Shown piece after piece: positions 3,525-56,635 of a stretch of DNA of 64,000 nucleotides. The notes below the pieces were generated by a model. The model did not search any database, had not been told where the DNA came from, and saw only the letters and a list, made by a program, of their open reading frames with translations. This DNA is from an uncultured bacterium (lineage in GTDB: Bacteria; Patescibacteriota; Minisyncoccia; Phycocordibacterales; PALSA-1337). The stretch covers positions 5,156 to 69,155 of the forward strand of contig CAIQIZ010000022.1 of assembly GCA_903872035.1 (NCBI GenBank), given 5' to 3'. Numbering within the stretch: position 1 is the first letter of the stretch; every line of letters starts with the position of its first letter. The translations under genes and the position numbers were made by a program.

Positions 3525-4139
3525 ATGAAAAAGAGCAAAACAGTTAGGATAATCAAGGGCAGTATAGGTATCATCGCCTTTCTCAAAGGCAAGAGAGTGA
3601 CTCTGCGGCCAGTCTCAGAAAAAGATATTCCACTTTTTCTGCGCTGGTTCAATGATCCGGAAGTCCGGCAATTCATTACGACAATATTCCCGGTCACGGA
3701 AGCCGGTGAACGTGAATGGGTAGAGGGCTTGACCAAGAAGTCGTCTACGGATGTCGTACTCGTGATCGAAGTCAAAGGAGTTCCGATAGGGACTATGGGA
3801 CTTCATCGCATCAATTGGCAGGATCGCACGGCTACGACAGGAGCGGTCATCGGAGATAAGAGATATTGGAACAAAGGTTATGGCACGGACGCCAAAATGG
3901 TCCTGCTCGACTATGCCTTCAACACTCTGAATCTCCGCAAGATCATGTCCACGGCCATTGCGTTCAATAGACGAAGTGTAGCTTATAGCCAGAAGTGTGG
4001 TTATAAAATTGAGGCCACGCTCTCGAGCCAGCATTTCAGGAATGGTCGTTATTGGGACGAGATCATTCTCGGCCTGTTCAAAGAGCAATGGCTTCCGTAC
4101 TGGCAGAAGTATTGCCAGAAAAGCGCCCGAAACTCATAA
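3525..4139 (+). CDS. GNAT family N-acetyltransferase (RimJ/RimL-like)
   Basis: Acetyl-CoA binding region 'VIGDKRYWNKGYGTDAKMVLLDYAFNTLNLRKI' matches GNAT motif A. 204 aa. Confidence 0.75.
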   Translation: MKKSKTVRIIKGSIGIIAFLKGKRVTLRPVSEKDIPLFLRWFNDPEVRQFITTIFPVTEAGEREWVEGLTKKSSTDVVLVIEVKGVPIGTMGLHRINWQDRTATTGAVIGDKRYWNKGYGTDAKMVLLDYAFNTLNLRKIMSTAIAFNRRSVAYSQKCGYKIEATLSSQHFRNGRYWDEIILGLFKEQWLPYWQKYCQKSARNS

Positions 4140-4327: not shown

Positions 4328-5995
4328 TCATATTGTAGAAATAGGTAGATTTATCATCACTCTCGCCCCTGCGTCTTTTCCATCCGACTCGATCCCAAAT
4401 GTTCCGTGATGCGCTTTTATGATCGCCTTGGCAACAGAAAGGCCGACGCCCATGCCGATCTTGTTAACCTTGCGCGCATTTTCGCCCCGGTAGAACAGGG
4501 TAGAACCGATCTTGGAGACTTCTTCCGAGGAAATGCCAATGCCAGAATTTTCTATGATCAAACTGAATCGACCATTGACTACCTGTGTGGAAATTTTGAT
4601 ATGACCACCGTCGTGATTGTAGGTGATAGCGTTTTCCATAATGATGAGCAAGATATCGCGCATTTTACCGAAGTCGATCATCAATTCTGGCCAAGCGGAT
4701 TCATCAGGCTGATAGCTGACCGTGATGTGTCTACGCTCAATTTCTGTTTTAAGCACAAGAAGGATCTCCTCGATCGCCGGTTTCAAGCTGTTACGCGAAG
4801 GGGTCAGGATGTTCTGTCCCGGCTTCATTGTTGTGATGTTCAGAAAATCGTCAATGATGTGGTTCAGCCGCGAGGTTGCTGTTTGAGCTTGGCCTGCGGC
4901 TACCTTCAGTTTCTGAGTGGTTTTGCCACAATCGCCATCTAGCATTGATCCAAGCTCTCGTTCTATGGTCGTGACCGGTGTGCGCAGGTGATGTTGGGTG
5001 ATCATGATGAACTGATTCTTGGCCTCATTCAACTTCTCCAGTTCCCGTCGCGCTTCTTTCTCCAAATCGTATGCTGTGCGTATCTCGTTCGTCTGTTCTG
5101 CCACCTTTTCGGCCAAATGCAGGTTGAGGTCTGCTAGCTGTTCCCGTTGCTTCGATTCGCGCAAAGTGCCGCGGACTAGGTAGATGGCCAGTATCAGAAA
5201 GACTATGAATGTCCCTACATCTTCCCATACACCCCACGGAGTATTGATGAATATGTTGATAAAGAAGATGGCCGTCATGGCTATGGCCAATACTTCGGTG
5301 ATGACCGCACGTACATCCATCTGGCGGTACTTTAGGATCGAGTAGGCGATGATGAAGACCCAGATGGCACTACTGATAGGCCCTAACCAGTTTAACGAGT
5401 AATATCCAAATGTCGGTAAAACGATGTTAACTAATGTTGGAGGGATAATTCCAAAAATCAGTGCCCATAACATTGTTTTCATGTTTGCCCTAAGCATTCC
5501 CGAAGATTTTGTTAATGTCCTGAAGATGTTCTTTATGGAGAGAAACCAAATTAAAATGAATATACAGTCAAAAAGTACATGTAGCGGACCAAAAGTCCAT
5601 GCCCATCGGCCGTTGCCGCCTATCTCATAGACGCCAGTGTTAAGATAAGCGGTAAATTCAAACAAATACGTGAATATCAGGACGATAAATATCGATAATG
5701 TAATCTTTGTTGATGATACAGGGGTGTCGTATGGGTAAATAACAGAGAATTGGTAGAATCCTAAAGCGATGATAATTCCGAGTATAGATTGAATTCTAAT
5801 GACCGAATCAGCAAGTAATGGAAGAGGCGTAATTATTAGAAAACCTTGAGATGCCACCCATATGGCTGTTATAAAAGTTAAAGCTGCAAATACCTTCGAT
5901 GACCGATTTTGACTCCCCATAAGTATTACAATGTCGAGACTACCTATTAGAATAGCGGTAACCCAAATTATGGAAGCAAAAATACTTATTTCCAT
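4328..5995 (-). CDS. Sensor histidine kinase with multi-pass membrane N-terminal sensor region
   Basis: N-terminal ~280 aa is highly hydrophobic, with about 8 predicted TM segments. H-box 'ITQHHLRTPVTTI', N-box 'IIMENAITYN' and G-boxes 'GIGIS...GMGVGLSVAKAIIKAHHG' of HisKA + HATPase_c follow. Confidence 0.85.
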   Translation of the reverse strand: MEISIFASIIWVTAILIGSLDIVILMGSQNRSSKVFAALTFITAIWVASQGFLIITPLPLLADSVIRIQSILGIIIALGFYQFSVIYPYDTPVSSTKITLSIFIVLIFTYLFEFTAYLNTGVYEIGGNGRWAWTFGPLHVLFDCIFILIWFLSIKNIFRTLTKSSGMLRANMKTMLWALIFGIIPPTLVNIVLPTFGYYSLNWLGPISSAIWVFIIAYSILKYRQMDVRAVITEVLAIAMTAIFFINIFINTPWGVWEDVGTFIVFLILAIYLVRGTLRESKQREQLADLNLHLAEKVAEQTNEIRTAYDLEKEARRELEKLNEAKNQFIMITQHHLRTPVTTIERELGSMLDGDCGKTTQKLKVAAGQAQTATSRLNHIIDDFLNITTMKPGQNILTPSRNSLKPAIEEILLVLKTEIERRHITVSYQPDESAWPELMIDFGKMRDILLIIMENAITYNHDGGHIKISTQVVNGRFSLIIENSGIGISSEEVSKIGSTLFYRGENARKVNKIGMGVGLSVAKAIIKAHHGTFGIESDGKDAGARVMINLPISTI

Positions 5996-12022: not shown

Positions 12023-13159
12023 ATGTCCCTCTCCATCGGCATCGTCGGGCTCCCAAATGTCGGCAAATCGACTCTATTCAATGCGCTGACCCGGAAATCG
12101 GTCCCGGCCGAAAACTATCCTTTTTGCACCATCGATCCTTCGGTGGGTGTTGTGGCTGTGCCTGATGAGCGTTTGCAAAAGCTCTCGGACTTCTCTGTCT
12201 CAGTGAAAACAGTGCCTGCCGCAGTTGAATTCACTGACATCGCCGGTCTGGTCAAAGGCGCATCTGAAGGCGAAGGACTCGGAAATAAGTTCCTTTCACA
12301 TATCCGCGAAACGGACGCTATCGCCCAGGTAGTGCGCATCTTCGAAGACGAGAATGTTATTCACGTTAATGCAAAAATTGACCCATTGAAGGATATAGAA
12401 GTCATAAACCTAGAATTGGTTCTGGCGGATTTGCAGACAGCTACCAAGCGGATGCATTCATTGGTCAAAGAAGTCAAAGCTGGCAAGAAGGAGGCTATCA
12501 TTGAAGCTGGACTTCTGGACAAGATCATTCCGGCATTGGAAGCAGGGAAGCTGGCGTCGACAGTTGTGGCTGATGAATTCGAGGCGCCATTCCTCAAGCA
12601 ATTGTGCCTTATTACTTCAAAACCATTTCTTTATGTCTTGAACAAGAAGGCTGGCGCCAAGAATCTGGATGAATCTGTCCGAGGTGCGGCCTCGGAAATG
12701 GATGAAAGGTGGGTTAAGCTGATGAACTTCCTCGAAGGAGGTGGCACCTCCGAGGAGGTGCCACCTCCATATGTCATCGTCGACGCCGGTGTCGAGCAAG
12801 AATTGAAAGACCTAGATGAAGTGGATAAATTGGAGATGCGCGAAGGGCTCGGTGCTCACAACGATGGCACCGATGAGCTCATCAAGCGCGGCTACGACTT
12901 ACTCGGTCTCATCACCTATTTCACTACTGGAACCGATGAAACGCGTGCATGGACGATAAAGAAAGGCTGGACCGCTCCAGAAGCCGGGACTGCTATTCAT
13001 ACTGATTTCAAAGAAAAATTCGTTCGTGCCGAAGTCATCGAATGGGACAAACTCCTCTCCGTCGGCTCATACGCTGCCGCTCGCGAAAAAGGCTTGCTCC
13101 GCACCGAAGGGAAGGAGTATGTGGTCAAAGATGGGGATGTGATAGAGTTTAGGGTGTAG
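12023..13159 (+). CDS. ychF: Ribosome-binding ATPase YchF (Obg-family GTPase-like)
   Basis: P-loop 'GIVGLPNVGKSTLFNALT', 'DIAGLVKGASEGEGLGNKFL' G3/G4 region and C-terminal TGS domain 'RAWTIKKGWTAPEAGTAIHTDFKEKFVRAEV'. Carries an in-frame insertion encoded by two copies of a 15-nt palindrome (12737-12768). Confidence 0.9.
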   Translation: MSLSIGIVGLPNVGKSTLFNALTRKSVPAENYPFCTIDPSVGVVAVPDERLQKLSDFSVSVKTVPAAVEFTDIAGLVKGASEGEGLGNKFLSHIRETDAIAQVVRIFEDENVIHVNAKIDPLKDIEVINLELVLADLQTATKRMHSLVKEVKAGKKEAIIEAGLLDKIIPALEAGKLASTVVADEFEAPFLKQLCLITSKPFLYVLNKKAGAKNLDESVRGAASEMDERWVKLMNFLEGGGTSEEVPPPYVIVDAGVEQELKDLDEVDKLEMREGLGAHNDGTDELIKRGYDLLGLITYFTTGTDETRAWTIKKGWTAPEAGTAIHTDFKEKFVRAEVIEWDKLLSVGSYAAAREKGLLRTEGKEYVVKDGDVIEFRV

Positions 13160-13160
13160 G

Positions 13161-13187
13161 AAAAAAGGCCGGCTGTAAAACCGGCTT
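13161..13187. terminator. Hairpin terminator between ychF (+) and a small minus-strand ORF; the U-tract lies on the minus-strand side
   Basis: 'AAAAAA-GGCCGGC-TGTAAAA-CCGGC' forms a GC stem, with the A-run on the + strand giving TTTTTT after the stem on the minus strand. Confidence 0.4.
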
Positions 13188-13569
13188 GAAGGAAACTGAC
13201 TGACTTAGTTTCGTTGAGTCTCGATCTCTCGGAGCAAGGCTAAACCTTTGCTTCCGTCAGGATCGAATGACCTCAATCGATGATTGGCTCGACTTAATCC
13301 TTCATCACTATCTTCAGGCGGAGCCGTATGATGCGAATCATAGTGATCAGAGGAATAAAGAGCCTCTGGCGCAAGTTTTTGTTTCATAATTCACCTAGGA
13401 AAAGTATAGCATGAAGATGGTGGTCTCATAGAGTTTAAGATATAATTTTGAATTCTATGACCCTGAGTGAGACGGTTAGGCGAACGAATGGGTGATTGAG
13501 TTTAAGATATAACAGGCTGTGGATGCGCTCTTTGTCGGGATATAGTAGTATTATCATCCAGAAGTTGGT

Positions 13570-13598
13570 TTGCATTCTACTAGCAGATGTGGTATAAT
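13570..13598 (+). promoter_or_regulatory. Near-consensus sigma-70-type promoter (TTGCAT - 17 nt - TGgTATAAT, extended -10)
   Basis: TTGCAT at 13570-13575, a 17-nt spacer, TATAAT at 13593-13598 preceded by TGg. Two 15-nt direct repeats 'GAGTTTAAGATATAA' lie upstream at 13431-13445 and 13498-13512. Confidence 0.5.
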
Positions 13599-13654
13599 TA
13601 GCCTATAGGAAATTTCAGTTCTGTAAAATGATAAGTAAAATTAGGAGTCAAATT

Positions 13655-13882
13655 ATGATTAGAACAAGAAGACTGCCTTATGATGGTTTTGCCGATGAAC
13701 CAAAGTTTCACTGGTCGGTGCAACAAGTTCATTACAAGTCGCCATTGAAAGGCGTTCCAGCATCCAGTAATCGACAGCCTTATGACGCGGACAAGCCGGA
13801 AATATTCGGTGCCATGTTGTTGATCGCGCTAGTCGTCGGTTTGGTCAGCGTGGCTGTCATCACACCGTTCTTCCATTCATAG
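13655..13882 (+). CDS. Small hypothetical membrane protein (75 aa; C-terminal TM helix)
   Basis: ATG at 13655 is preceded by 'AGGAGT' with a 6-nt spacer. C-terminal 'IFGAMLLIALVVGLVSVAVITPFF' is hydrophobic. Sits between the strong promoter and a terminator. Confidence 0.45.
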   Translation: MIRTRRLPYDGFADEPKFHWSVQQVHYKSPLKGVPASSNRQPYDADKPEIFGAMLLIALVVGLVSVAVITPFFHS

Positions 13883-13901
13883 CGCCATTGGCGCACTCTA
13901 G

Positions 13902-13932
13902 GGCCCCCGATCCATTCGGTGGCCTTTTTTGT
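13902..13932 (+). terminator. Rho-independent terminator (or attenuator) immediately upstream of leuS
   Basis: 'GGCC-c-CCGA-TCCAT-TCGG-t-GGCC' followed by 'TTTTTTGTATCTT'. Confidence 0.45.
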
Positions 13933-13963
13933 ATCTTCCGAGCATTTGCGCTATATTTAATCG

Positions 13964-16900
13964 ATGAAAAAGAAACTCAAAGGAGGTGCCACCTCCAAAT
14001 ATAACCCAGCAACGATCGAGCCAAAATGGCAGAAGAAGTGGGAAAAGGAAAAGCTTTACGTGGCCAAGGAAAAGGCTGGTAAGAAGAAATTTTATGGCTT
14101 GATCGAATTTCCGTATCCATCTGGTGATGGTTTGCATGTTGGCCATATCCGCAGCAATACTGCCATGGATATCATATGCCGAAAGCGACGTCGTGAAGGG
14201 TTCGAAGTGCTATATCCCATAGGATGGGATGCTTTTGGTCTGCCAACAGAGAATTACGCTATCAAGACTGGTATTCAACCTTCAGTAGTCACCAAGAAGA
14301 ACACTGATACCTTCCGCAAACAACTGAAAGCTCTCGGCTTCTCATTCGATTGGTCAAGGGAAGTTAATACGACCGATCCAAAATACTATCGCTGGACGCA
14401 ATGGATATTCTTGCAGCTTTTGAAGAATGGTCTGGCATACAAGAAGAAGATGACGATCAATTGGTGTCCCAAAGATTTGATCGGCTTGGCCAACGAGGAA
14501 GTGGTGAATGGCCGCTGCGAGCGTTGTGGCACGCCGGTAGAGAAGCGTGAAAAGGAACAATGGATGCTGGCTATAACAAAATACGCAGAACGTCTCGACA
14601 GAGATCTTGATGATGTAGATTATCTACCAAAGATTAAGACCCAACAGAGGAATTGGATCGGCAAAAGCGAGGGAGCGGAGATCGATTTTAGATTGACGAT
14701 TAAGAATAGTAAGACGAGATTCGTGATTCTTCATGGCTTCGATGGGGGAGCCACGACGGATTTCCACCCATGGCTAAAAGAAGTGTTGGAGAAGCGTGGT
14801 CATGAAGTTGAACTTCCGGAATTGCCGAACGCCTATCATCCTAAGGAAGCCGAGCAAGTCGAATATGTTCTAAAGAATTGTAAATTGGATGAGAATACGG
14901 TTATTGTCGCTCATAGTTTAGGCGCGGTCGTGGCCATGAAAGCCTTGATGAAATTGAACAAGCCAATCTCTGGTTTGGTCTTGGTGGCCGCTGCCGTCGA
15001 TCCGAAATTCGACAAATTTTATGAGTCGCGTCCATTTGCCAAAGAATTCGACTGGAAATACGATTACGCTTTGCTTCAAAAGCTGACTGGTGGAAAGGTC
15101 GCAGTGCTTTCAGATCTCAAAGAAAAGCACAGAAGTCGTTATTTGAAATTCTTGGCTGAAAAGTTGAATGCACGTTTTGTTGAAACCAGTAGCGTAGAAG
15201 AGCATTTCTGCGCCAAAGAAGAGCCGGAAGTCCTCAAAGCCGTCACTCCATCTATCAAAGTCTTCACCACTCGCCCTGACACGCTCTTCGGGGCGACTTA
15301 TATGGTCTTGGCGCCAGAAAATCCTTGGGTCAAGATAGTTTTATCGCAGCTTGAGAACAAGACTGAAGTTGAAGCATATATCGCCAAAGCCTCGCATGAG
15401 ACAGAGATAGAACGCACTGATGCCACCAAAGAAAAGACGGGCGTCGAATTGAAGGGCGTGAAGGCGGTCAATCCCGCTAACAACGAAGAGATCCCGGTAT
15501 GGATCGCAGATTATGTTCTCTCTGACTACGGCACGGGAGCTATCATGGCTGTTCCGGCGCATGATGAGAGAGACTGGGAGTTTGCCAAGAAATTTGGGTT
15601 GCCGATCCGACATGTCGTTATACCGCAAAGGATTGGATTTCCTGGCGAGCTGGCTTTTCGTCCAAATGAACCGGTTGTCAATCGTAGGGTCATTCGTGCG
15701 GTAGTCAAACATTGGTCAGATAATTCCTACGCAGTTCTGACTTGGAAAGACAATGGCTGGAAGACGTTCATATCCGGTGGTATCGAAGAAGGAGAGGACC
15801 CAGTGACTGCTGCCAAAAGAGAGATATTCGAAGAGATCGGTTACAAAAATGCGGAGTTCGTCGGACCTATAGGTGGGCCGGTTCAAGCGAAGTTCTACGC
15901 GCCAAATAAGAAACAAAATCGTATCGATATCCAACAAGGATTGCTCTTCAAGCTGAAGAATGACGAGCGGGTGGACGTATCTCCTGACGAGCTCAAGATT
16001 CACGAGATGCAATGGTTACCGTGGGAATCTCTTGGTGAATTTATGAAGGGTACCATCATGGACTCATTCTTATTTGAGCGCCTCAATAGTGGTAATAATC
16101 AGTACTTTATCGGTAGTGGCATATTGATCGACTCTGGCCAATTCTCAGGAAGAGATTCCGAGTCGGCCATGAAAGAGATCACCGAATCGGTCGGCGGAAA
16201 ATGGGTCACCAAGTACAAGCTTCGCGATTGGGTATTTTCTCGTCAGCGGTATTGGGGCGAGCCTATTCCGGTCGTGCATTGTGACGCTTGTGAAGCGAAA
16301 GATCCTGACAATGGTGGCTGGGTTCCAATTCCGGAAAAGGACCTGCCGGTAAAGCTGCCGGTCGTGAAGAATTATAAACCGACACAGACTGGGGAATCTC
16401 CATTGGCTGCCATGACCAAATGGGTCAATGTCAAATGTCCAGTATGTAAGGGACCAGCCAAAAGAGAGACTGATACTATGCCGAACTGGGCTGGCTCGAG
16501 CTGGTACTACTTGCGCTATGTCGACCCAAAGAATGCGACACGATTTGCTGACTCAAAGAAATTGAAGTATTGGACACCTGTCGACTGGTATAACGGCGGT
16601 ATGGAACATACCACCTTACACCTCCTATATTCGCGTTTCTGGCACAAATTCTTGTTCGACCAGGGCGTGGTCCCGACGAGCGAGCCATATACAAAGAGGA
16701 CTTCCCACGGGCTCATCCTGGCGGAATTCGGGGTGAAGATGTCCAAGTCCAAAGGTAACGTTGTCAATCCAGATACCATCGTTAAAGCTGTCGGTGCCGA
16801 TGCGTTACGTGTATACGAGATGTTCATGGGACCTTTCGATCAACCGATCGCTTGGGATACGGACAATATCGCTGGATCACGCCGTTTCATTGAACGCGTT

Positions 16901-17458
16901 TGGAATATGCGCCAGCGAATTACTGGTGGAGCAGCCGAATCTTCGCCAGCTTCGGCGCAAACCGATCGAATCATCCATAAGACCATCAAGAAAGTCGGAG
17001 ATGATATCGAAGCTATGCGATTCAACACAGCCATAAGCTCGCTTATGATACTTGTAAATGAACTTGAGAAGCAGGGAGGAGGAAGGAGGGAGGAGGAAGT
17101 AGAAATTCCAGCCGCTATTTCACGCGAAAATTTTGAGATCCTTCTTAAGCTGCTCGCGCCATTCGCACCACATGTCACTGAAGAGCTTTGGGTCTCTCTA
17201 GGCAATAAAAAATCGATCCATTTGAGCGACTGGCCGGCTTATGATGCGAGCTTAGCCGCCGATGATGAAGTAAAAATAATCGTGCAAGTTAACGGCAAGG
17301 TCCGCGGCTCGTTCATGGCTAAGCAGGGAGCCCAAATGGAAGATTTGGAACGTCTGGCCAAGGGCTTGCCTGAAGCCAAGAAGTGGTTGGAAGGCAAGCA
17401 GATCGGCAAGGTGATAGTAGTGCCGAATCGTCTCGTCAACATCGTGTTGACAAATTAG
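13964..17458 (+). CDS. leuS: Leucyl-tRNA synthetase with two embedded extra domains (YdeN-like alpha/beta serine hydrolase; NUDIX hydrolase)
   Basis: HIGH motif 'LHVGHIRS' and KMSKS 'KMSKSKGN'. CP1 editing block 'TTRPDTLFGATYMVLAPE...GTGAIMAVPAHDERDWEFAKKFGLPI'. Anticodon-binding and C-terminal regions conserved. Extra ~180 aa between 'NWIGKSEGAEIDF' and 'TTRPDT' contain 'FVILHGFDG...VAHSLGAVVA' (an alpha/beta hydrolase GxSxG). Extra ~130 aa after the editing-domain core contain a perfect NUDIX box 'GGIEEGEDPVTAAKREIFEEIGY'. Total 1164 aa against about 800-860 typical. Confidence 0.9.
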   Translation: MKKKLKGGATSKYNPATIEPKWQKKWEKEKLYVAKEKAGKKKFYGLIEFPYPSGDGLHVGHIRSNTAMDIICRKRRREGFEVLYPIGWDAFGLPTENYAIKTGIQPSVVTKKNTDTFRKQLKALGFSFDWSREVNTTDPKYYRWTQWIFLQLLKNGLAYKKKMTINWCPKDLIGLANEEVVNGRCERCGTPVEKREKEQWMLAITKYAERLDRDLDDVDYLPKIKTQQRNWIGKSEGAEIDFRLTIKNSKTRFVILHGFDGGATTDFHPWLKEVLEKRGHEVELPELPNAYHPKEAEQVEYVLKNCKLDENTVIVAHSLGAVVAMKALMKLNKPISGLVLVAAAVDPKFDKFYESRPFAKEFDWKYDYALLQKLTGGKVAVLSDLKEKHRSRYLKFLAEKLNARFVETSSVEEHFCAKEEPEVLKAVTPSIKVFTTRPDTLFGATYMVLAPENPWVKIVLSQLENKTEVEAYIAKASHETEIERTDATKEKTGVELKGVKAVNPANNEEIPVWIADYVLSDYGTGAIMAVPAHDERDWEFAKKFGLPIRHVVIPQRIGFPGELAFRPNEPVVNRRVIRAVVKHWSDNSYAVLTWKDNGWKTFISGGIEEGEDPVTAAKREIFEEIGYKNAEFVGPIGGPVQAKFYAPNKKQNRIDIQQGLLFKLKNDERVDVSPDELKIHEMQWLPWESLGEFMKGTIMDSFLFERLNSGNNQYFIGSGILIDSGQFSGRDSESAMKEITESVGGKWVTKYKLRDWVFSRQRYWGEPIPVVHCDACEAKDPDNGGWVPIPEKDLPVKLPVVKNYKPTQTGESPLAAMTKWVNVKCPVCKGPAKRETDTMPNWAGSSWYYLRYVDPKNATRFADSKKLKYWTPVDWYNGGMEHTTLHLLYSRFWHKFLFDQGVVPTSEPYTKRTSHGLILAEFGVKMSKSKGNVVNPDTIVKAVGADALRVYEMFMGPFDQPIAWDTDNIAGSRRFIERVWNMRQRITGGAAESSPASAQTDRIIHKTIKKVGDDIEAMRFNTAISSLMILVNELEKQGGGRREEEVEIPAAISRENFEILLKLLAPFAPHVTEELWVSLGNKKSIHLSDWPAYDASLAADDEVKIIVQVNGKVRGSFMAKQGAQMEDLERLAKGLPEAKKWLEGKQIGKVIVVPNRLVNIVLTN

Positions 17459-18646: not shown

Positions 18647-18745
18647 AGCAAGGAGGAAGGAGTAAGAAGCAAGGAGTAGGGCATGCCACCCTACTCCATT
18701 CTTCGTTCTCCTTGCTCCTTCCTTCTTACTCCTTGCTCCTATATT
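18647..18745. repeat. Purine-rich AAGGAG-repeat element forming a long imperfect hairpin (terminator-like) directly after a stop codon
   Basis: 'AGCAAGGAGGAAGGAGTAAGAAGCAAGGAGTAGGG' is followed by its near reverse complement 'CCCTACTCC...CTCCTTGCTCCTTCCTTCTTACTCCTTGCTCC'. It shares the 12-nt core 'GCAAGGAGGAAG' with the elements at 35901 and 53841. Confidence 0.4.
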
Positions 18746-33768: not shown

Positions 33769-34755
33769 ATGATTTACGACGTCGTTCTACCATCACAACC
33801 CAAGGTCATCCGCGAGGAAGGCAACAGCGGTACCTACGAGATTGATGGCCTTTACCCAGGTTATGGCCACACCCTAGGCAATTCGTTGCGTAGGATCATT
33901 CTCTCGTCTTTACCAGGCGCGGCTGTGACAAAGGTCAAGATCAGAGGCGTCGATCATGAATTTTCTGCAATCGAAGGCGTCAAGGAAGACGTCATCATCA
34001 TTCTGTTGGCCCTCAAGAAGCTACGCATCCGACTCGATACCGATGAACCTCAGCTCCTTACACTCAACGTCAAAGGTGTCAAAGAGATTACCGCCAAAGA
34101 CATCACGGTTCCAGGCCAGGCTGAGATTTTGAATCCAGACCTGCATATCGCCACCTTAACCGAGAAGGATTCTGCGATCGATATCGAGATCTCTGTCGAG
34201 AAAGGGTTGGGTTATGTCTCCAAGGAAGTCATCCAGAAAGATCGCGTGGAGATAGGGGCTATCACTCTGGATGCCGCCTTTACACCGATCCGCAAAGCCA
34301 ACTATGAAGTCGAGAACATGCGCGTCGGAGATCGTACTGATTTCAATCGTCTTCGCCTGTCCATCGAGACCGATGGCACCATAAGTCCGAGAGAAGCTCT
34401 CGAGAAGTCTATTTCTCTCATGATCCACCAGCTCAAAGCTATCGTCGGATTCAAAGAGGAAGAAGTCGAAGCCAAGGAGGAAGGAGGAAGCAGCAAGGAG
34501 GAAGGAGCTGAGGTCTCTGCGGACGAAAAGCATGGTAAGGGTGAAATGGATACGGAGCTTATGAAGACTCGCATCGATTCACTGGGACTCTCTTCTCGAA
34601 CTGCCAAGGCTTTGACGGCTGGCAATATCCGCACTTTGGGAGGTCTGGCACGCAAGAAGGAGTCAGATATCATGGATGTCGATGGATTGGGCGCCAAAGG
34701 GATGCAGGAGATAAAGAAATTACTCGCACAACACGGAATCACGTTAAAACAGTAA
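33769..34755 (+). CDS. rpoA: DNA-directed RNA polymerase alpha subunit
   Basis: NTD 'GYGHTLGNSLRRIILSSLPGAAVT', CTD 'LGLSSRTAKALTAGNIRTLGGL'. The inter-domain linker is a KEEG-rich low-complexity stretch encoded by AAGGAG repeats. Confidence 0.9.
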   Translation: MIYDVVLPSQPKVIREEGNSGTYEIDGLYPGYGHTLGNSLRRIILSSLPGAAVTKVKIRGVDHEFSAIEGVKEDVIIILLALKKLRIRLDTDEPQLLTLNVKGVKEITAKDITVPGQAEILNPDLHIATLTEKDSAIDIEISVEKGLGYVSKEVIQKDRVEIGAITLDAAFTPIRKANYEVENMRVGDRTDFNRLRLSIETDGTISPREALEKSISLMIHQLKAIVGFKEEEVEAKEEGGSSKEEGAEVSADEKHGKGEMDTELMKTRIDSLGLSSRTAKALTAGNIRTLGGLARKKESDIMDVDGLGAKGMQEIKKLLAQHGITLKQ

Positions 34756-35489: not shown

Positions 35490-35900
35490 ATGGCCCCAAC
35501 TACCACCACAAACAAATATTTCGAAGCCGTCGGTCGTCGCAAGACCGCCATTGCTCGTGTCCGATTGTTCCCGGCTCCAAAGGCCAAGTATGAAGTCAAC
35601 GGAAAGGCTTTGGAAGAATATTTTCCAGTAAAAGAGATGCAACAGACGGCTATGGAGGCCATCGAAAATGGCAAAGCAGCCGAGAAGTTTCTGGTAACGG
35701 CCAAGATCGTCGGTGGTGGCATATCTGCCCAATCAGAAGCTATGAGACATGGCATTGCTCGCGCACTCCTGGTTTACGATATTGAGCTTCGTGGTGGTCT
35801 CAAGAAGCAAGGATTTTTGAAGAGAGATCCTCGCGCCAAGGAACGCCGTAAGTTCGGATTCAAGAAAGCCCGCAAGTCTCCACAGTGGTCGAAGAGATAA
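35490..35900 (+). CDS. rpsI: 30S ribosomal protein S9
   Basis: 'YFEAVGRRKTAIARVRL' and C-terminal 'KRDPRAKERRKFGFKKARKSPQWSKR'. Confidence 0.9.
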   Translation: MAPTTTTNKYFEAVGRRKTAIARVRLFPAPKAKYEVNGKALEEYFPVKEMQQTAMEAIENGKAAEKFLVTAKIVGGGISAQSEAMRHGIARALLVYDIELRGGLKKQGFLKRDPRAKERRKFGFKKARKSPQWSKR

Positions 35901-35968
35901 GGAGGAAGAAGACAGGAGCAAGGAGGAAGGAAAATCTCAAAAAAGGGAGTGGCGACACTCCTTTTTTC
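35901..35968 (+). terminator. AAGGAG-repeat element plus rho-independent terminator after rpsI
   Basis: 'GGAGGAAGAAGACAGGAGCAAGGAGGAAGG' is followed by the hairpin 'GGGAGTG-GCGA-CACTCC' and 'TTTTTTCG'. Confidence 0.6.
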
Positions 35969-38590: not shown

Positions 38591-40510
38591 ATGTCCAAAA
38601 TCATCGGAATCGACCTCGGAACGACTTTCTCGGCAGTAGCCGTCATGGAAGCCGGAACGCCGAGAGTCCTAGAAAACGCGGAGGGGGCACGCACAACGCC
38701 TTCGATTGTCGCCCAATCTAAAACAGGCGAAAGGCTCGTCGGATTGCTTGCAAAGAGGCAGGCTGTGACTAATCCCAAGAACACCATATTCCAAATTAAG
38801 CGCTTCATGGGCCATAACTTCGACGATCCAGGCGTACAGAACGATATCAAGAACGTCTCATTCGAAGTCAGAAAATCTTCGACCGGCGGCATTGAAGTTA
38901 ACTTATCCGGCAAATGGATGAGACCTGAAGAGGTCTCGGCTATGATCCTGCAGAAACTGAAGAATGACGCTGAAACGAGACTTGGTGAAAAGATTACCGA
39001 AGCGGTCATTACTGTTCCGGCTTACTTCAACGACTCCCAGAGAGCCGCTACTAGAGATGCTGGTAAGATCGCTGGCCTCGATGTAAAGAGGATCATCAAT
39101 GAACCGACAGCCGCGGCCTTGGCTTATGGCTTCAACAAGAAGAAGGACGAGAAGATCGCCGTATTCGACTTCGGTGGCGGAACATTCGATATATCAGTGC
39201 TAGATGTTGGCGGAGATACGATCGAAGTGAAGTCTACTGATGGCGACTCCCATCTCGGAGGTCGCGATATTGATGCCAAGATAGTGAATTGGCTTGCAGA
39301 TACGTTCAAGAAAGAGAACGGCATTGATCTAAAGACTGATGCATTGGCTTTACAGCGTCTCGATGAGGCGGCAGAAAAGGCCAAGATAGAGCTTTCAACA
39401 TCTATGCAGACGGATATAAATATCCCATTCATCACTTCAGGTTCAGATGGACCGAAGCATCTTATGGTCACATTCACTCGCGCAAAGCTAGAGGAAATGT
39501 GCGCTGAATTCATAGATAGAGCCATGATGATCACCAAGCGCGCTATAGATGCTTCGCCATTCAAGGTCGGCGAGATCAATGAAGTAGTCCTAGTTGGCGG
39601 TCAGACACGTATGCCGGCCATGCAAAGCGCGGTCAAGAAGTTCTTCGGTAGGGATCCTCACATGGGAGTCAATCCTGACGAAGTGGTTGCGGTGGGCGCC
39701 GCTATTCAAGGCGGAATATTAGGCGGTGAAGTTCGAGACGTATTGCTTCTCGATGTCATTCCGCTTTCACTCGGTATCGAAACATTGGGCGGTGTTGCGA
39801 CGAAACTGATAGACAAGAATACGACCGTTCCTACCCAACGTTCTCAAGTGTTCTCAACGGCGGCTGACAATCAGACATCCGTGGAAATCCACATCACTCA
39901 AGGCGAGCGAGCTATGTCATCTGACAACAAGTCCCTAGGCCGCTTCATTCTCGACGGTATTCCACCGGCTCCTCGCGGTATGCCGCAGGTCGAAGTCACA
40001 TTCGATGTCGATGCTAACGGCATATTGAATGTCACAGCAAAGGATAAGGCTTCCGGCAAGGCTAACTCCATAAAGATCACTGCTTCTTCGGGTCTATCCA
40101 AAGAAGAAGTTGAGAAGATGAAGCAGGAAGCGGCCAAGCATGAAGCTGAAGATAAGACCAAGCATGAGGCTGTAGAAGCTAAGAATATTTCTGAACAATT
40201 GATCTACACCGCTGAAAAGGCTTTGAAAGATGCCGGAGACAAAGTTCCTGCCGATATCAGGAAGGGTATTGAAGACAAGATAGCCGACTTGAAGACGGCC
40301 AAGAATGGGAGCGACCTTACGCTCATAAAGAAAGTAACGGAGGCTTTGTCGACCGAAATTCAGAAGATTGGGCAGTACATGAATAAGGAGCAAGGAGGAG
40401 GGAGTAAGGAGCAGGGAGGCTCGAATTCTGGAGGTCAAAACGGGGACAAAGGCGCCGGTGGAGACTCAGGTGGAAATGTGAAGGATGCGGAGTTTAAGGA
40501 AAAAAAGTAG
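38591..40510 (+). CDS. dnaK: Molecular chaperone DnaK (Hsp70)
   Basis: '[14 protein letters not shown]', 'DLGGGTFD', '[11 protein letters not shown]' Hsp70 signatures and a Gly-rich C-terminus. Confidence 0.95.
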
Positions 40511-48435: not shown

Positions 48436-49413
48436 ATGAAAAAGAACCTATTATCCGGCGTAAAACCGACCGGCAGGCCGCATATCGGCAATTATTTCGG
48501 AGCCATGAAGCAATTCGTGGATCTTCAAGATGGTCGAGGCCAGGCCTCGGACAGTTACGACTGTCATTTATTCGTAGCCGATTATCACGCACTCAACCTG
48601 ATTCAAGACGCCGAACAAATGCGACAGCTTACTCTCGATTTAGTTCTTGATTATTTAGCAATTGGCCTTGATCCAAAGAAGTCGATCATATTCAAACAGT
48701 CAGATGTTCCGGCTCACACCGAATTGGCGTGGATTTTTGACACCATAGTGACTATGCCATACTTGATGAGAGCACATGCTTACAAAGACGCCGAAGCAAA
48801 GAATAAGGAGATCAATGTTGGCACGTTCAATTATCCGGTATTGATGGCAGCTGATATCCTGCTTTATGACACCGATGTTGTTCCTGTCGGCCAAGATCAG
48901 AAACAACATGTAGAGTACGCGCGTGATATCGCATTGAAATTTAATCACATCTTCAAGAGTGAGACTTTCAAATTGCCGGAGCCGATCATACTTGAATCGG
49001 TCGCAACAGTCCCTGGAATAGATGGCCGAAAGATGTCGAAGAGTTATAACAATACTATCCCTCTGTTTGCGACGCGTGAAGAGATCCAAAAAGCAGTCAT
49101 GGCGATAGTCACTGATTCGGGTGGTCCAGAAGCCGGCGGAGTTCCGACGAACGTCTTTGTCATGCACAAACTCTTCAAATCGGAGGCCGAATTGAAGCCG
49201 CTCTATGAAACAAATGCCGGCAAATATAAGATCTTGAAGGAAGCTCTTGTCGAGGATATCGATGCATTCATTAAGCCTCTTCGCGAGCGCCGTGAAAAGC
49301 TGGCCAGCGACGTGAAAAACGTTATAAAAGTCTTGGAAGATGGCGCGAATAATGCGAACATAAAGGCGAATGCCAAGCTGCTCGAGGCAAAGAAGGCAAT
49401 CGGTGTCATTTAG
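48436..49413 (+). CDS. trpS: Tryptophanyl-tRNA synthetase
   Basis: 'SGVKPTGRPHIGNYFGA' (HIGH-type), 'KMSKSYNNTI' (KMSKS) and 'VPVGQDQKQHVE'. Confidence 0.9.
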   Translation: MKKNLLSGVKPTGRPHIGNYFGAMKQFVDLQDGRGQASDSYDCHLFVADYHALNLIQDAEQMRQLTLDLVLDYLAIGLDPKKSIIFKQSDVPAHTELAWIFDTIVTMPYLMRAHAYKDAEAKNKEINVGTFNYPVLMAADILLYDTDVVPVGQDQKQHVEYARDIALKFNHIFKSETFKLPEPIILESVATVPGIDGRKMSKSYNNTIPLFATREEIQKAVMAIVTDSGGPEAGGVPTNVFVMHKLFKSEAELKPLYETNAGKYKILKEALVEDIDAFIKPLRERREKLASDVKNVIKVLEDGANNANIKANAKLLEAKKAIGVI

Positions 49414-49454
49414 GTCTGACCTAAAAGAGGCATTTTAGGTTAAACCTCGAACAA

Positions 49455-50230: not shown

Positions 50231-50367
50231 TAGGTGGGAGGAGCGCATCCACTTTGAAAGCACTTTAGTCAACTAAAGTCAGATTGCAGAAAAACAACTG
50301 CAAATTTTGAACCTCCTACTTTAGTCAACTAAAGTGTGTGCAAAATGAACAACATACCCCCACCTAC
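50231..50367. repeat. MITE-like palindrome-rich element between scpA and scpB (about 11-bp terminal inverted repeats; internal 18-nt palindrome x2)
   Basis: Ends 'GTAGGTGGGAGG' ... 'CCCCCACCTAC'. Internal 'ACTTTAGTCAACTAAAGT' at 50263-50280 and 50320-50337. Central 'TTGCAGAAAAACAACTGCAA'. Confidence 0.35.
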
Positions 50368-53333: not shown

Positions 53334-53840
53334 ATGGAACCTAATTCTTCAGGTATAAAGACGTGGCAATGGGTAGTGACCGTCGTTGTCATTATCGTGA
53401 TCATCGTTATTTGTGTCTTGGTCTTTGGTGGTAAGGGCTCTCAAGCTCCCGCTACTGGAACCAACACGGTCAATACGACCGATCAGACAGCTGCTCTTAA
53501 TAAGATCGACATGAATGATCAGTTTCCTGGTAACGTTGTTTACATAAATACAGTCACTGTGGCCAATCCGAGCTGGGTGGTCATCCAATCTGACAATAGT
53601 GGACAACCTGGTGCCGTCATCGGTTCCGCTGAATACAAGGCTGGCATGAATCCTGGTGGAAAGCTCACACTCTCACAGGCCATGGTTGATGGAGGAACGT
53701 ACTACGCCGTCATCTACACCAATGATGGTAGCGGCAAGTTCAGCGCCGCCACCGACAAGCCTCTCACGGATTCTAGCGGAAATATCGTCATGAAGGTATT
53801 CCATGCCACGACTTCAGCTGGAGCGGGACTCAAAGGATAA
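53334..53840 (+). CDS. Hypothetical membrane-anchored protein (N-terminal TM, Thr/Gly-rich ectodomain)
   Basis: TM 'WQWVVTVVVIIVIIVICVLVF'. Followed by an AAGGAG-repeat element plus terminator. Confidence 0.5.
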   Translation: MEPNSSGIKTWQWVVTVVVIIVIIVICVLVFGGKGSQAPATGTNTVNTTDQTAALNKIDMNDQFPGNVVYINTVTVANPSWVVIQSDNSGQPGAVIGSAEYKAGMNPGGKLTLSQAMVDGGTYYAVIYTNDGSGKFSAATDKPLTDSSGNIVMKVFHATTSAGAGLKG

Positions 53841-53890
53841 GGAGCAAGGAGGAAGAAGCAAGGAGAAGGTCGGCGCTATGCCGGCCTTTT
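53841..53890 (+). terminator. AAGGAG-repeat element plus rho-independent terminator
   Basis: 'GGAGCAAGGAGGAAGAAGCAAGGAGAAG' then the hairpin 'GGTCGGCG-CTAT-GCCGGCC' and 'TTTTC'. Confidence 0.55.
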
Positions 53891-56588: not shown

Positions 56589-56635
56589 GAGGTCAGACAT
56601 CTACACTGCATAGGTCTGACCTATGTATGTTTACA

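Follow-up and report, generated by a model that had tools for sequence, protein, structure and literature searches.

A palindrome with Shine-Dalgarno and anti-Shine-Dalgarno arms in ychF and leuS of a Paceibacteria genome: a possible low-copy repeat in permissive protein regions

How does a perfect palindrome, one arm of which is a Shine-Dalgarno (SD) sequence and the other arm the matching anti-SD sequence, come to lie inside two housekeeping genes, and what keeps its arms intact? The question is raised by a 64,000-nt stretch of contig CAIQIZ010000022.1, referred to here as the window, in which the genes ychF and leuS carry a unit with the layout 7-1-7, GGAGGTG-N-CACCTCC (motif GGAGGTGNCACCTCC). 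As judged from the names of its YchF relatives, the host belongs to the Paceibacteria/Parcubacteria, which are part of the candidate phyla radiation (CPR). The original prediction for this locus saw in the units either a mobile, selfish mini-palindrome or a translational pausing signal. The genes and units concerned are the following:

12023-13159, + strand: ychF, ribosome-binding ATPase of 378 aa, host of three palindromic units (open reading frame (ORF); Pfam MMR_HSR1 and YchF-GTPase_C)
12678-12696, + strand: degenerate fourth unit with the core CGAGGTGCGGCCTCG at 12680-12694, in the first variable loop of YchF
12737-12751, + strand: copy A, GGAGGTG-G-CACCTCC (GGAGGTGGCACCTCC), in ychF, read as G G G T S
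12754-12768, + strand: copy B, GGAGGTG-C-CACCTCC (GGAGGTGCCACCTCC), in ychF, read in another frame as E V P P P
13964-17458, + strand: leuS, 1164 aa, host of copy C (ORF)
13979-13999, + strand: 21-nt insertion AAA-GGAGGTGCCACCTCC-AAA in leuS, a clean gap in the alignment with the sister species
13982-13996, + strand: copy C (GGAGGTGCCACCTCC), codons 7-11 of leuS, read as G G A T S

The three perfect copies A, B and C are present exactly where they had been reported, and they are the only matches to the motif in the window at up to two mismatches; the remaining ~62 kb contains no further copy. Dinucleotide-preserving shuffles of the window gave on average 0.04 matches, and none of 100 shuffles reached three. 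The region, which lies on contig Ga0073936_10000349 of the Joint Genome Institute and on contig k141_55148 of ENA ERZ27313068, is 99.995-100% identical in seven contigs that stem from independent assemblies of different samples made with different assemblers, which rules out an assembly artefact. A scan of a genome collection for the 15-mer covered 596 Gb and yielded at least 119 loci; among those listed the matches were mostly single and scattered over many phyla, as chance predicts for a collection of that size. One of them, in the peptide deformylase gene Def of a member of the Patescibacteria (L037), at first resembled a further loop insertion and was dismissed as a codon-driven chance match, the encoded FVAEVP being a conserved protein motif in the orthologues. 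Such sporadic single matches are what a chance origin would produce. For the copies of the window, however, chance as well as an assembly or sequencing artefact is refuted by the shuffles, by the agreement of the assemblies and by the comparison with the sister species described below, where the copies stand out as insertions, and we give this explanation practically no credence.

Copies A and B are reverse-complementary, as had been claimed. Their central bases are complementary too, so that both together form a single 32-nt palindrome (12737-12768) with arms of 15 nt and a GA loop. The degenerate unit CGAGGTGCGGCCTCG agrees with the motif at 11 of 15 positions and has kept its palindromy; four other 15-mers in the window match the motif equally well. 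All four units, the degenerate one included, span at most 1.3 kb. Translation of the ORFs reproduced the peptides given in the original prediction, EGGGTSEEVPPP in YchF and KGGATSK in LeuS. Copies A and C encode GG(G/A)TS and copy B encodes EVPPP from the other frame, and due to the use of two reading frames no common peptide is encoded. The in-frame placement, which had been taken as telling, carries little information, since essential genes retain no insertion that is out of frame. The positions of inserted units within their genes (+19, +658, +715 and +455) are inconsistent. A clustered regularly interspaced short palindromic repeat (CRISPR) array is not what the window contains: there are two adjoining 15-nt units and one unit 1.2 kb away, and TRF reports 1.9 copies with a period of 17 nt.

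The closest relative found (loci L166-L170), which we call the sister species, has a YchF that is 85% identical to that of the window, and ychF, a small ORF and leuS follow one another in it as they do in the window. Its 13 kb are free of the motif, even at up to two mismatches. Its leuS reads ATGAAGAAAAATGTC directly followed by TATGATCCG, and the window carries AAAGGAGGTGCCACCTCCAAA there, the difference being a clean 21-nt gap. The loop of ychF that holds copies A and B exceeds its counterpart in the sister species by 18 nt, and in the other variable loop the window has a 6-nt insertion of its own at the site of the degenerate unit. The prediction that the segments are insertions is thereby borne out; they are lineage-specific, and the units evidently entered ychF and leuS after the split from the sister species.

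It had further been held that the insertion interrupts an otherwise conserved region of YchF. The protein matches the structure PDB 1jal with E = 1.6e-98, and its alignment with 120 orthologues supported one part of this statement and contradicted the other: the A/B loop is 6 aa longer than the loop consensus, but the region is not conserved. Most orthologues read FF-KETKAG-YVIVDAG at this site, which an alignment with solved YchF structures places just ahead of a beta-strand, and several lineages carry unrelated insertions of up to ~50 residues there. Due to this length variation among orthologues, the element has to be placed in a variable-length loop and not in a conserved segment. The N-terminus of LeuS ahead of the YDP/YNP motif is also variable. 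In the YchF orthologue of locus L179, an unrelated insertion forming an 8-bp hairpin occupies the loop equivalent to the A/B site. The YchF insert NGRTSVN of other orthologues had been guessed to be encoded by a palindrome; the DNA of locus L178 ruled this out. In the window as in the sister species, LeuS has gained a serine-hydrolase (alpha/beta hydrolase) domain by insertion and also carries a NUDIX domain; L179 has a LeuS version of 1558 aa.

We propose, with a probability of roughly 45%, that the element is a low-copy and lineage-specific short palindromic repeat, similar to repetitive extragenic palindromic (REP) sequences, that was copied locally and is tolerated in permissive loops. After the split the unit entered ychF as an inverted dimer in a variable-length loop, with an older and decayed copy in a second loop, and leuS in the variable N-terminal extension 1.2 kb from the ychF copies. 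The insertions are in frame and confined to places where the proteins tolerate extra residues. The copying would have been local and independent of a dedicated transposase, with snap-back or template-switch synthesis giving rise to the inverted dimer and ectopic templated insertion to the leuS copy. Three features favour such replication-based copying over transposition: the units are clustered locally, the inverted dimer is perfect, and insertions nearby build hairpins. The encoded peptides would then be passengers with no role of their own, and the effect on the genes would be at most a local slowing of ribosomes at the strong hairpin, not a designed control device. The perfect 15-nt arms, complementary centres and 2-nt loop of the ychF dimer resemble quasi-palindromes generated by template switching (snap-back), and the neighbouring lineage-specific insertions likewise create hairpins. 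However, switching alone does not explain the identical leuS unit 1.2 kb away or the arm conservation in another lineage that is described below.

The persistence of both arms needs a reason of its own. The canonical 3' tail of 16S rRNA contains CACCUCC, and the 3' end in the host organism, the window itself having no rRNA gene, is presumably CACCUCCUU(U). The arm GGAGGTG is a 7-nt SD sequence and the arm CACCTCC equals the CACCUCC of this tail, so that the description of the arms as SD and anti-SD is correct letter for letter. Our preferred reason for their persistence is mutual masking, in which the SD-like GGAGGUG and the anti-SD-like CACCUCC would each be harmless only when paired. In a highly expressed mRNA, an exposed SD-like sequence of 7-10 nt or an exposed anti-SD mimic would do harm, and selection would therefore remove changes that disrupt the stem. 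Mutual masking would thus explain the persistence of the arms with no need for an adaptive function.

REP sequences are imperfect palindromes of 20-40 bp with a stem of 5-13 bp and an unpaired GTAG or CGTC tag at one end (PMC3733652). Within genes they occur as single units and as head-to-head dimers in loops, linkers and N-termini, sometimes two per gene (Di Nocera et al. 2013, PMC3733652). The units of the window resemble REPs, among them RPE-4 and RPE-6 of Rickettsia, in being small stem-loop repeats that form a larger hairpin when paired in opposite orientation, and in lying in frame inside known genes where they encode short passenger peptides (PMC3733652). Head-to-head dimers are present as well, with complementary centres in the ychF, L126 and L183 pairs. 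Furthermore, a genuine REP-like dimer is found in locus L184, in the same loop of a beta-CASP protein that holds the pair of loci L044 and L183. There are also differences. The unit of the window is 15 nt long in comparison to 20-40, although its stem of 6-7 bp (14-15 bp in the dimer) is within the REP range; its loop is just 1-3 nt and its arms are exactly SD and complement. The GTAG or CGTC tag is missing from the flanks of the inserted copies, which read CTCGAA, CCGA, CTCAAA, CTTAC, CCGAAA and others. With three to four copies in 64 kb, all within 1.3 kb, the repeat appears low in number and local; REPs have many dispersed copies per genome. Membership in the REP family proper is not established, given a unit that is short and tagless, has no known transposase and was counted in the window only.

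Another comparison is offered by the RPE-1 elements of Rickettsia, which are ~100-150 bp long, occur in tens of copies and are selfish in-frame insertions in essential genes. Like them, the units of the window are palindromic, lineage-specific and inserted in frame at permissive surface sites of housekeeping proteins in a reduced genome; in contrast to them, they comprise 15-32 nt in three to four clustered copies. Rickettsia palindromic elements and miniature inverted-repeat transposable elements (MITEs) in general measure 50-150 bp or more and have terminal inverted repeats and a target-site duplication. The inserts found here are of 15-36 nt and show no consistent duplication, AAA/AAA being present at leuS only.

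An indication that the arms matter comes from another lineage. In L044 (JBDKJM01), a metagenome-assembled genome of the Parcubacteria, a beta-CASP hydrolase gene carries GGAGGTGCCACCTCA, 10 nt, and then GGAGGTGCCACCTCC, in a hypervariable loop whose length ranges from 0 to ~70 residues among 120 orthologues. The nearest orthologue of L044 is found in L183 (JAWVHA01; 81% identical), and its DNA reads GGAGGTGTCACCTCA, 10 nt, and then GGAGGTGACACCTCC. That the arms would be kept and the centres changed in L183 had been predicted beforehand from the peptide and was then borne out by the DNA. All 28 of 28 arm positions are identical and the central bases alone differ (C,C versus T,A), in genes that are 74% identical overall and 48% identical at third codon positions within identical codons; at 74% per site the probability of such an identity is ~2e-4. 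This indicates that, at the nucleotide level, either the pairing or the sequence of the arms in L044 and L183 is constrained. The arm conservation in L183 is not a product of the search procedure, and it argues against pure neutral debris.

Further pairs were found elsewhere. Locus L126, an AT-rich metagenome contig, contains an intergenic inverted pair of the unit, and L111 contains a degenerate adjoining pair inside a cluster of hairpins. The centre-to-centre spacing within pairs varies between 15, 17, 20 and 25 nt and shows no helical phasing. The dimer of L184 (positions ~130-240) is made of GTCATCCCTGCGAAAGCAGGGATCC and GGATTCCGGCCTTCGCCGGAATGAC in inverted orientation and in frame, and it encodes VIPAKAGIQ...MDSGLRRND. 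A scan of metagenomes for paired copies gave seven loci, of which six are 36-nt tandem arrays on high-GC contigs and one is CPR-like. These arrays (L120-L125, metagenome Ga0136642) consist of ~36-nt units with AGGAGGTG(C/G)CACCTCCT in up to 10 copies per array, on contigs of 52-67% GC with no clear long ORFs; they resemble the repeats of centromeres, iterons or satellites, and their source is an unrelated organism that may be a eukaryote or a giant virus. A viral scan returned single matches except for one high-GC phage contig (L160) that is unrelated to the CPR. There, a repeated intergenic module (4013-4027 and 4355-4369) comprises a terminator-like hairpin, AGGAGGTGGCACCTCC and the SD and start codon of the next gene. 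A full-text literature search for the motif hit nothing but unrelated sequences of the primer type, and no description of the element came up in keyword searches.

The distribution bears directly on the idea of a mobile element of the REP or MITE kind that is moved in trans by a REP-associated tyrosine transposase (RAYT) or an enzyme of the IS200/IS605 type and of which, as for Rickettsia palindromic elements, only the in-frame insertions in permissive loops survive in a gene-dense genome. The 15-mer occurs in two genes of the window and also in genes and intergenic DNA of other Paceibacteria (L044/L183, L111 and L126), its units form head-to-head dimers, and a classic REP-like dimer sits in frame in the beta-CASP loop of L184. 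Patescibacteria account for six of the 119 loci listed and seem several-fold enriched, measured against an estimated share of the phylum in the bases scanned. Mobility throughout the genome, as envisaged in the original prediction, is nevertheless not what the counts show: there are three to four copies in 64 kb, confined to 1.3 kb; the 13 kb from the sister species contain none; and the metagenome collection yielded very few paired copies, with one CPR-like locus. No transposase, recombinase or restriction gene, and specifically no RAYT (Y1/HUH) transposase, is present among the Pfam-annotated genes of the window, which is ordinary housekeeping DNA. A target-site duplication or GTAG/CGTC tag is not evident, and 15 nt is below the size of any described mobile unit. 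We consider transposition by a dedicated enzyme improbable.

The predicted structures agree with the hairpin folding that had been proposed. For the ychF dimer as RNA, the prediction is a hairpin of 14 bp at -32.2 kcal/mol (z = -6.2); for the leuS unit, it is a stem of 6 bp closed by a loop of 3 nt (-8.9 kcal/mol), and for the degenerate unit, a stem of 8 bp at -15 kcal/mol (z = -3.4). None of the copies is followed by a T run on the + strand, as an intrinsic terminator would be; the sole terminator-like match is located on the - strand at leuS and serves no gene. Rfam 15 gave no match in the window at the gathering threshold and, at E values up to 10, only weak chance-level matches for 12500-14200 and related loci.

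The hairpin could be a functional RNA element, a mimic of the SD:anti-SD duplex that acts as a programmed pause or as an mRNA stabiliser of the STAB-SD kind, or that senses free 16S 3' tails or the factors binding to them. The arms are invariant across species while the centre is free, which fits this idea, and the centres are complementary in three of four pairs (window, L183 and L126). The A-rich 5' flank of several copies yields AAAGGAGGTG. On the other hand, pairing selection alone would conserve the arms too, the sister species without the element shows that it is dispensable for the function of ychF and leuS, no Rfam family is matched, and the within-gene positions given above lack consistency. 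STAB-SD elements are SD-like sequences that bind the 16S 3' end without a translation start. The window units share with them a perfect SD-like sequence, and with SD-sequestering hairpins the pairing of this sequence with an anti-SD-like strand. However, those elements are situated in 5' untranslated regions by the start codon or at the 5' end of the mRNA; the window units are located inside coding sequence with no usable start codon 3' of them, in an organism mostly without SD-led initiation.

This last point rests on the gene starts of the window. An SD-like motif within 20 nt upstream is present in 7 of the 60 called genes; the SD sequence is thus no common initiation signal in this organism, which weakens the SD-based role that had been suggested. 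Many genes, ychF and leuS included, have a TAnnnT box 6-8 nt ahead of the ATG, which suggests that the mRNAs are mostly leaderless. In leuS, a TATATT box ends 7 nt 5' of the ATG. The leuS mRNA probably has no leader, and the leuS hairpin sits at +19 to +33 of it, which speaks for the functional RNA. At copy C there is no ATG, GTG or TTG in range of a functional SD site, and the sole ATG 3' of copy B is out of frame and opens an ORF of 11 codons. We rejected an internal ribosome-binding, frameshift or bypass site, given the lack of a suitably placed start codon, a slippery heptamer and matching take-off and landing codons. A titration of ribosomes, also part of the original prediction, is implausible with three sites. 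Taken together, we regard a functional RNA element as unlikely, though less so than a mobile one.

The same sequence context includes tandem SD-like arrays. They are built from the heptamer AAGGAG[GC], the SD consensus, with four to five heptamers per array on the sense strand:

17068-17099, sense strand: tandem AAGGAG[GC] array
18647-18676, sense strand: tandem AAGGAG[GC] array
34452-34507, sense strand: tandem AAGGAG[GC] array
35899-35931, sense strand: tandem AAGGAG[GC] array
40385-40418, sense strand: tandem AAGGAG[GC] array
53839-53869, sense strand: tandem AAGGAG[GC] array

The arrays lie inside leuS, the rpoA linker and the dnaK tail, and three begin at or right after gene stop codons. 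The array at 18647-18676 has an inverted arm at 18694-18740, and the pair (18647-18745) is predicted to fold at -53 kcal/mol. At up to two mismatches, GCAAGGAGGAAG occurs 28 times in the window versus 5.6 expected. The arrays in leuS and at 18.6 kb are missing from the sister species, and a strict array pattern (three AGGAG with spacing of 2-3 nt) had no match in the other loci fetched (~1.3 Mb). Their presence is striking given the few genes with an upstream SD. For a functional RNA, the arrays are a supporting point: SD-like sequence may serve a role other than initiation here.

One could go further and view the GGAGGUG-N-CACCUCC hairpins and the AAGGAG[GC] arrays as one cis-acting system of mostly leaderless Paceibacteria that engages the otherwise idle anti-SD tail within coding regions and downstream of them. 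This tail, or a reader such as Era or YchF, would pace or recycle ribosomes or stabilise the mRNA, and the arm sequence would be fixed by the 16S 3' end and not by a protein or a transposase. We consider this a long shot, less probable than transposition.

Slimmer still, in our view, is the chance that the unit, as double-stranded DNA, is bound by a dimeric protein and serves, for example, as an operator or in the organisation of a centromere or the nucleoid, its place in coding loops being due to the scarcity of intergenic space. The 7-1-7 palindrome with an unconstrained dyad base is the classic layout of such sites, and layout and arm conservation fit dimer operators as well as parS and matS. 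The sites are clustered, and the core recurs in the 36-nt arrays of unrelated high-GC contigs and in the phage intergenic repeats, contexts typical of protein-binding sites. However, the high-GC arrays stem from unrelated organisms, a candidate for the binding protein is lacking, and the variable spacing within pairs is not phased to the helix. With the exception of the leuS site, which is just downstream of a promoter, the units are outside promoters, and the sister species lacks the site.

A locally copied, tolerated repeat remains our preferred reading, with several points that weigh against it. The "family" rests on few loci, and its count covers the 64-kb window. Loci L044 and L111 were found by an exact 15-mer search, and what they share with the window is partly ascertainment. 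The unit falls short of the described REP size and carries no tag, and the copying mechanism is one that we infer. An adaptive function as RNA or DNA could explain the perfect arms in L044 and L183 equally well. Finally, an A-rich 5' flank (AAA or GAA before GGAGGTG) is present in four of seven inserted copies and extends the complementarity to the 16S tail. It weighs against a purely structural element, because such an element would not need it.

If the unit is only a tolerated hairpin insertion, it provides a small and clean example of a known pattern, palindromic repeats in permissive loops of essential genes, in the gene-dense reduced genomes of the CPR as in Rickettsia. This would be relevant for gene annotation and for the reading of "lineage-specific inserts" in such proteins. 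The finding would gain weight if the SD and anti-SD arms are perfectly conserved across species on account of an interaction with the ribosome. It would then be a testable case of an SD-like sequence with a role beyond initiation, in an organism with mostly apparently leaderless mRNAs.

Other insertions and palindromes surround the units. Between the ychF and leuS palindrome sites lies this insertion:

13160-13514, no strand assigned: window-specific insertion of ~355 nt directly 3' of ychF, from the alignment with the sister species

It holds two relics in which the final ~30 nt of ychF are repeated (13416-13445 and 13486-13512) and a 60-aa antisense ORF (13205-13387), and it resembles what is left of elements once integrated into the ychF 3' end. 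Alignment with the sister species is possible over 7 kb, and there the window has several more insertions of its own that either form hairpins or abound in SD-like sequence. The window has more short perfect palindromes than expected (117 versus 78 +/- 8), and two others are also repeated. The perfect 18-nt palindrome ACTTTAGTCAACTAAAGT is present twice between scpA and scpB (50262-50279 and 50318-50335), 56 nt apart, in a pair that resembles operator sites. A palindrome with the core TAGGTCTGACCTA is found at 49409-49425 and 56609-56625, just 3' of two genes, and may represent a family of small palindromic repeats or terminators.

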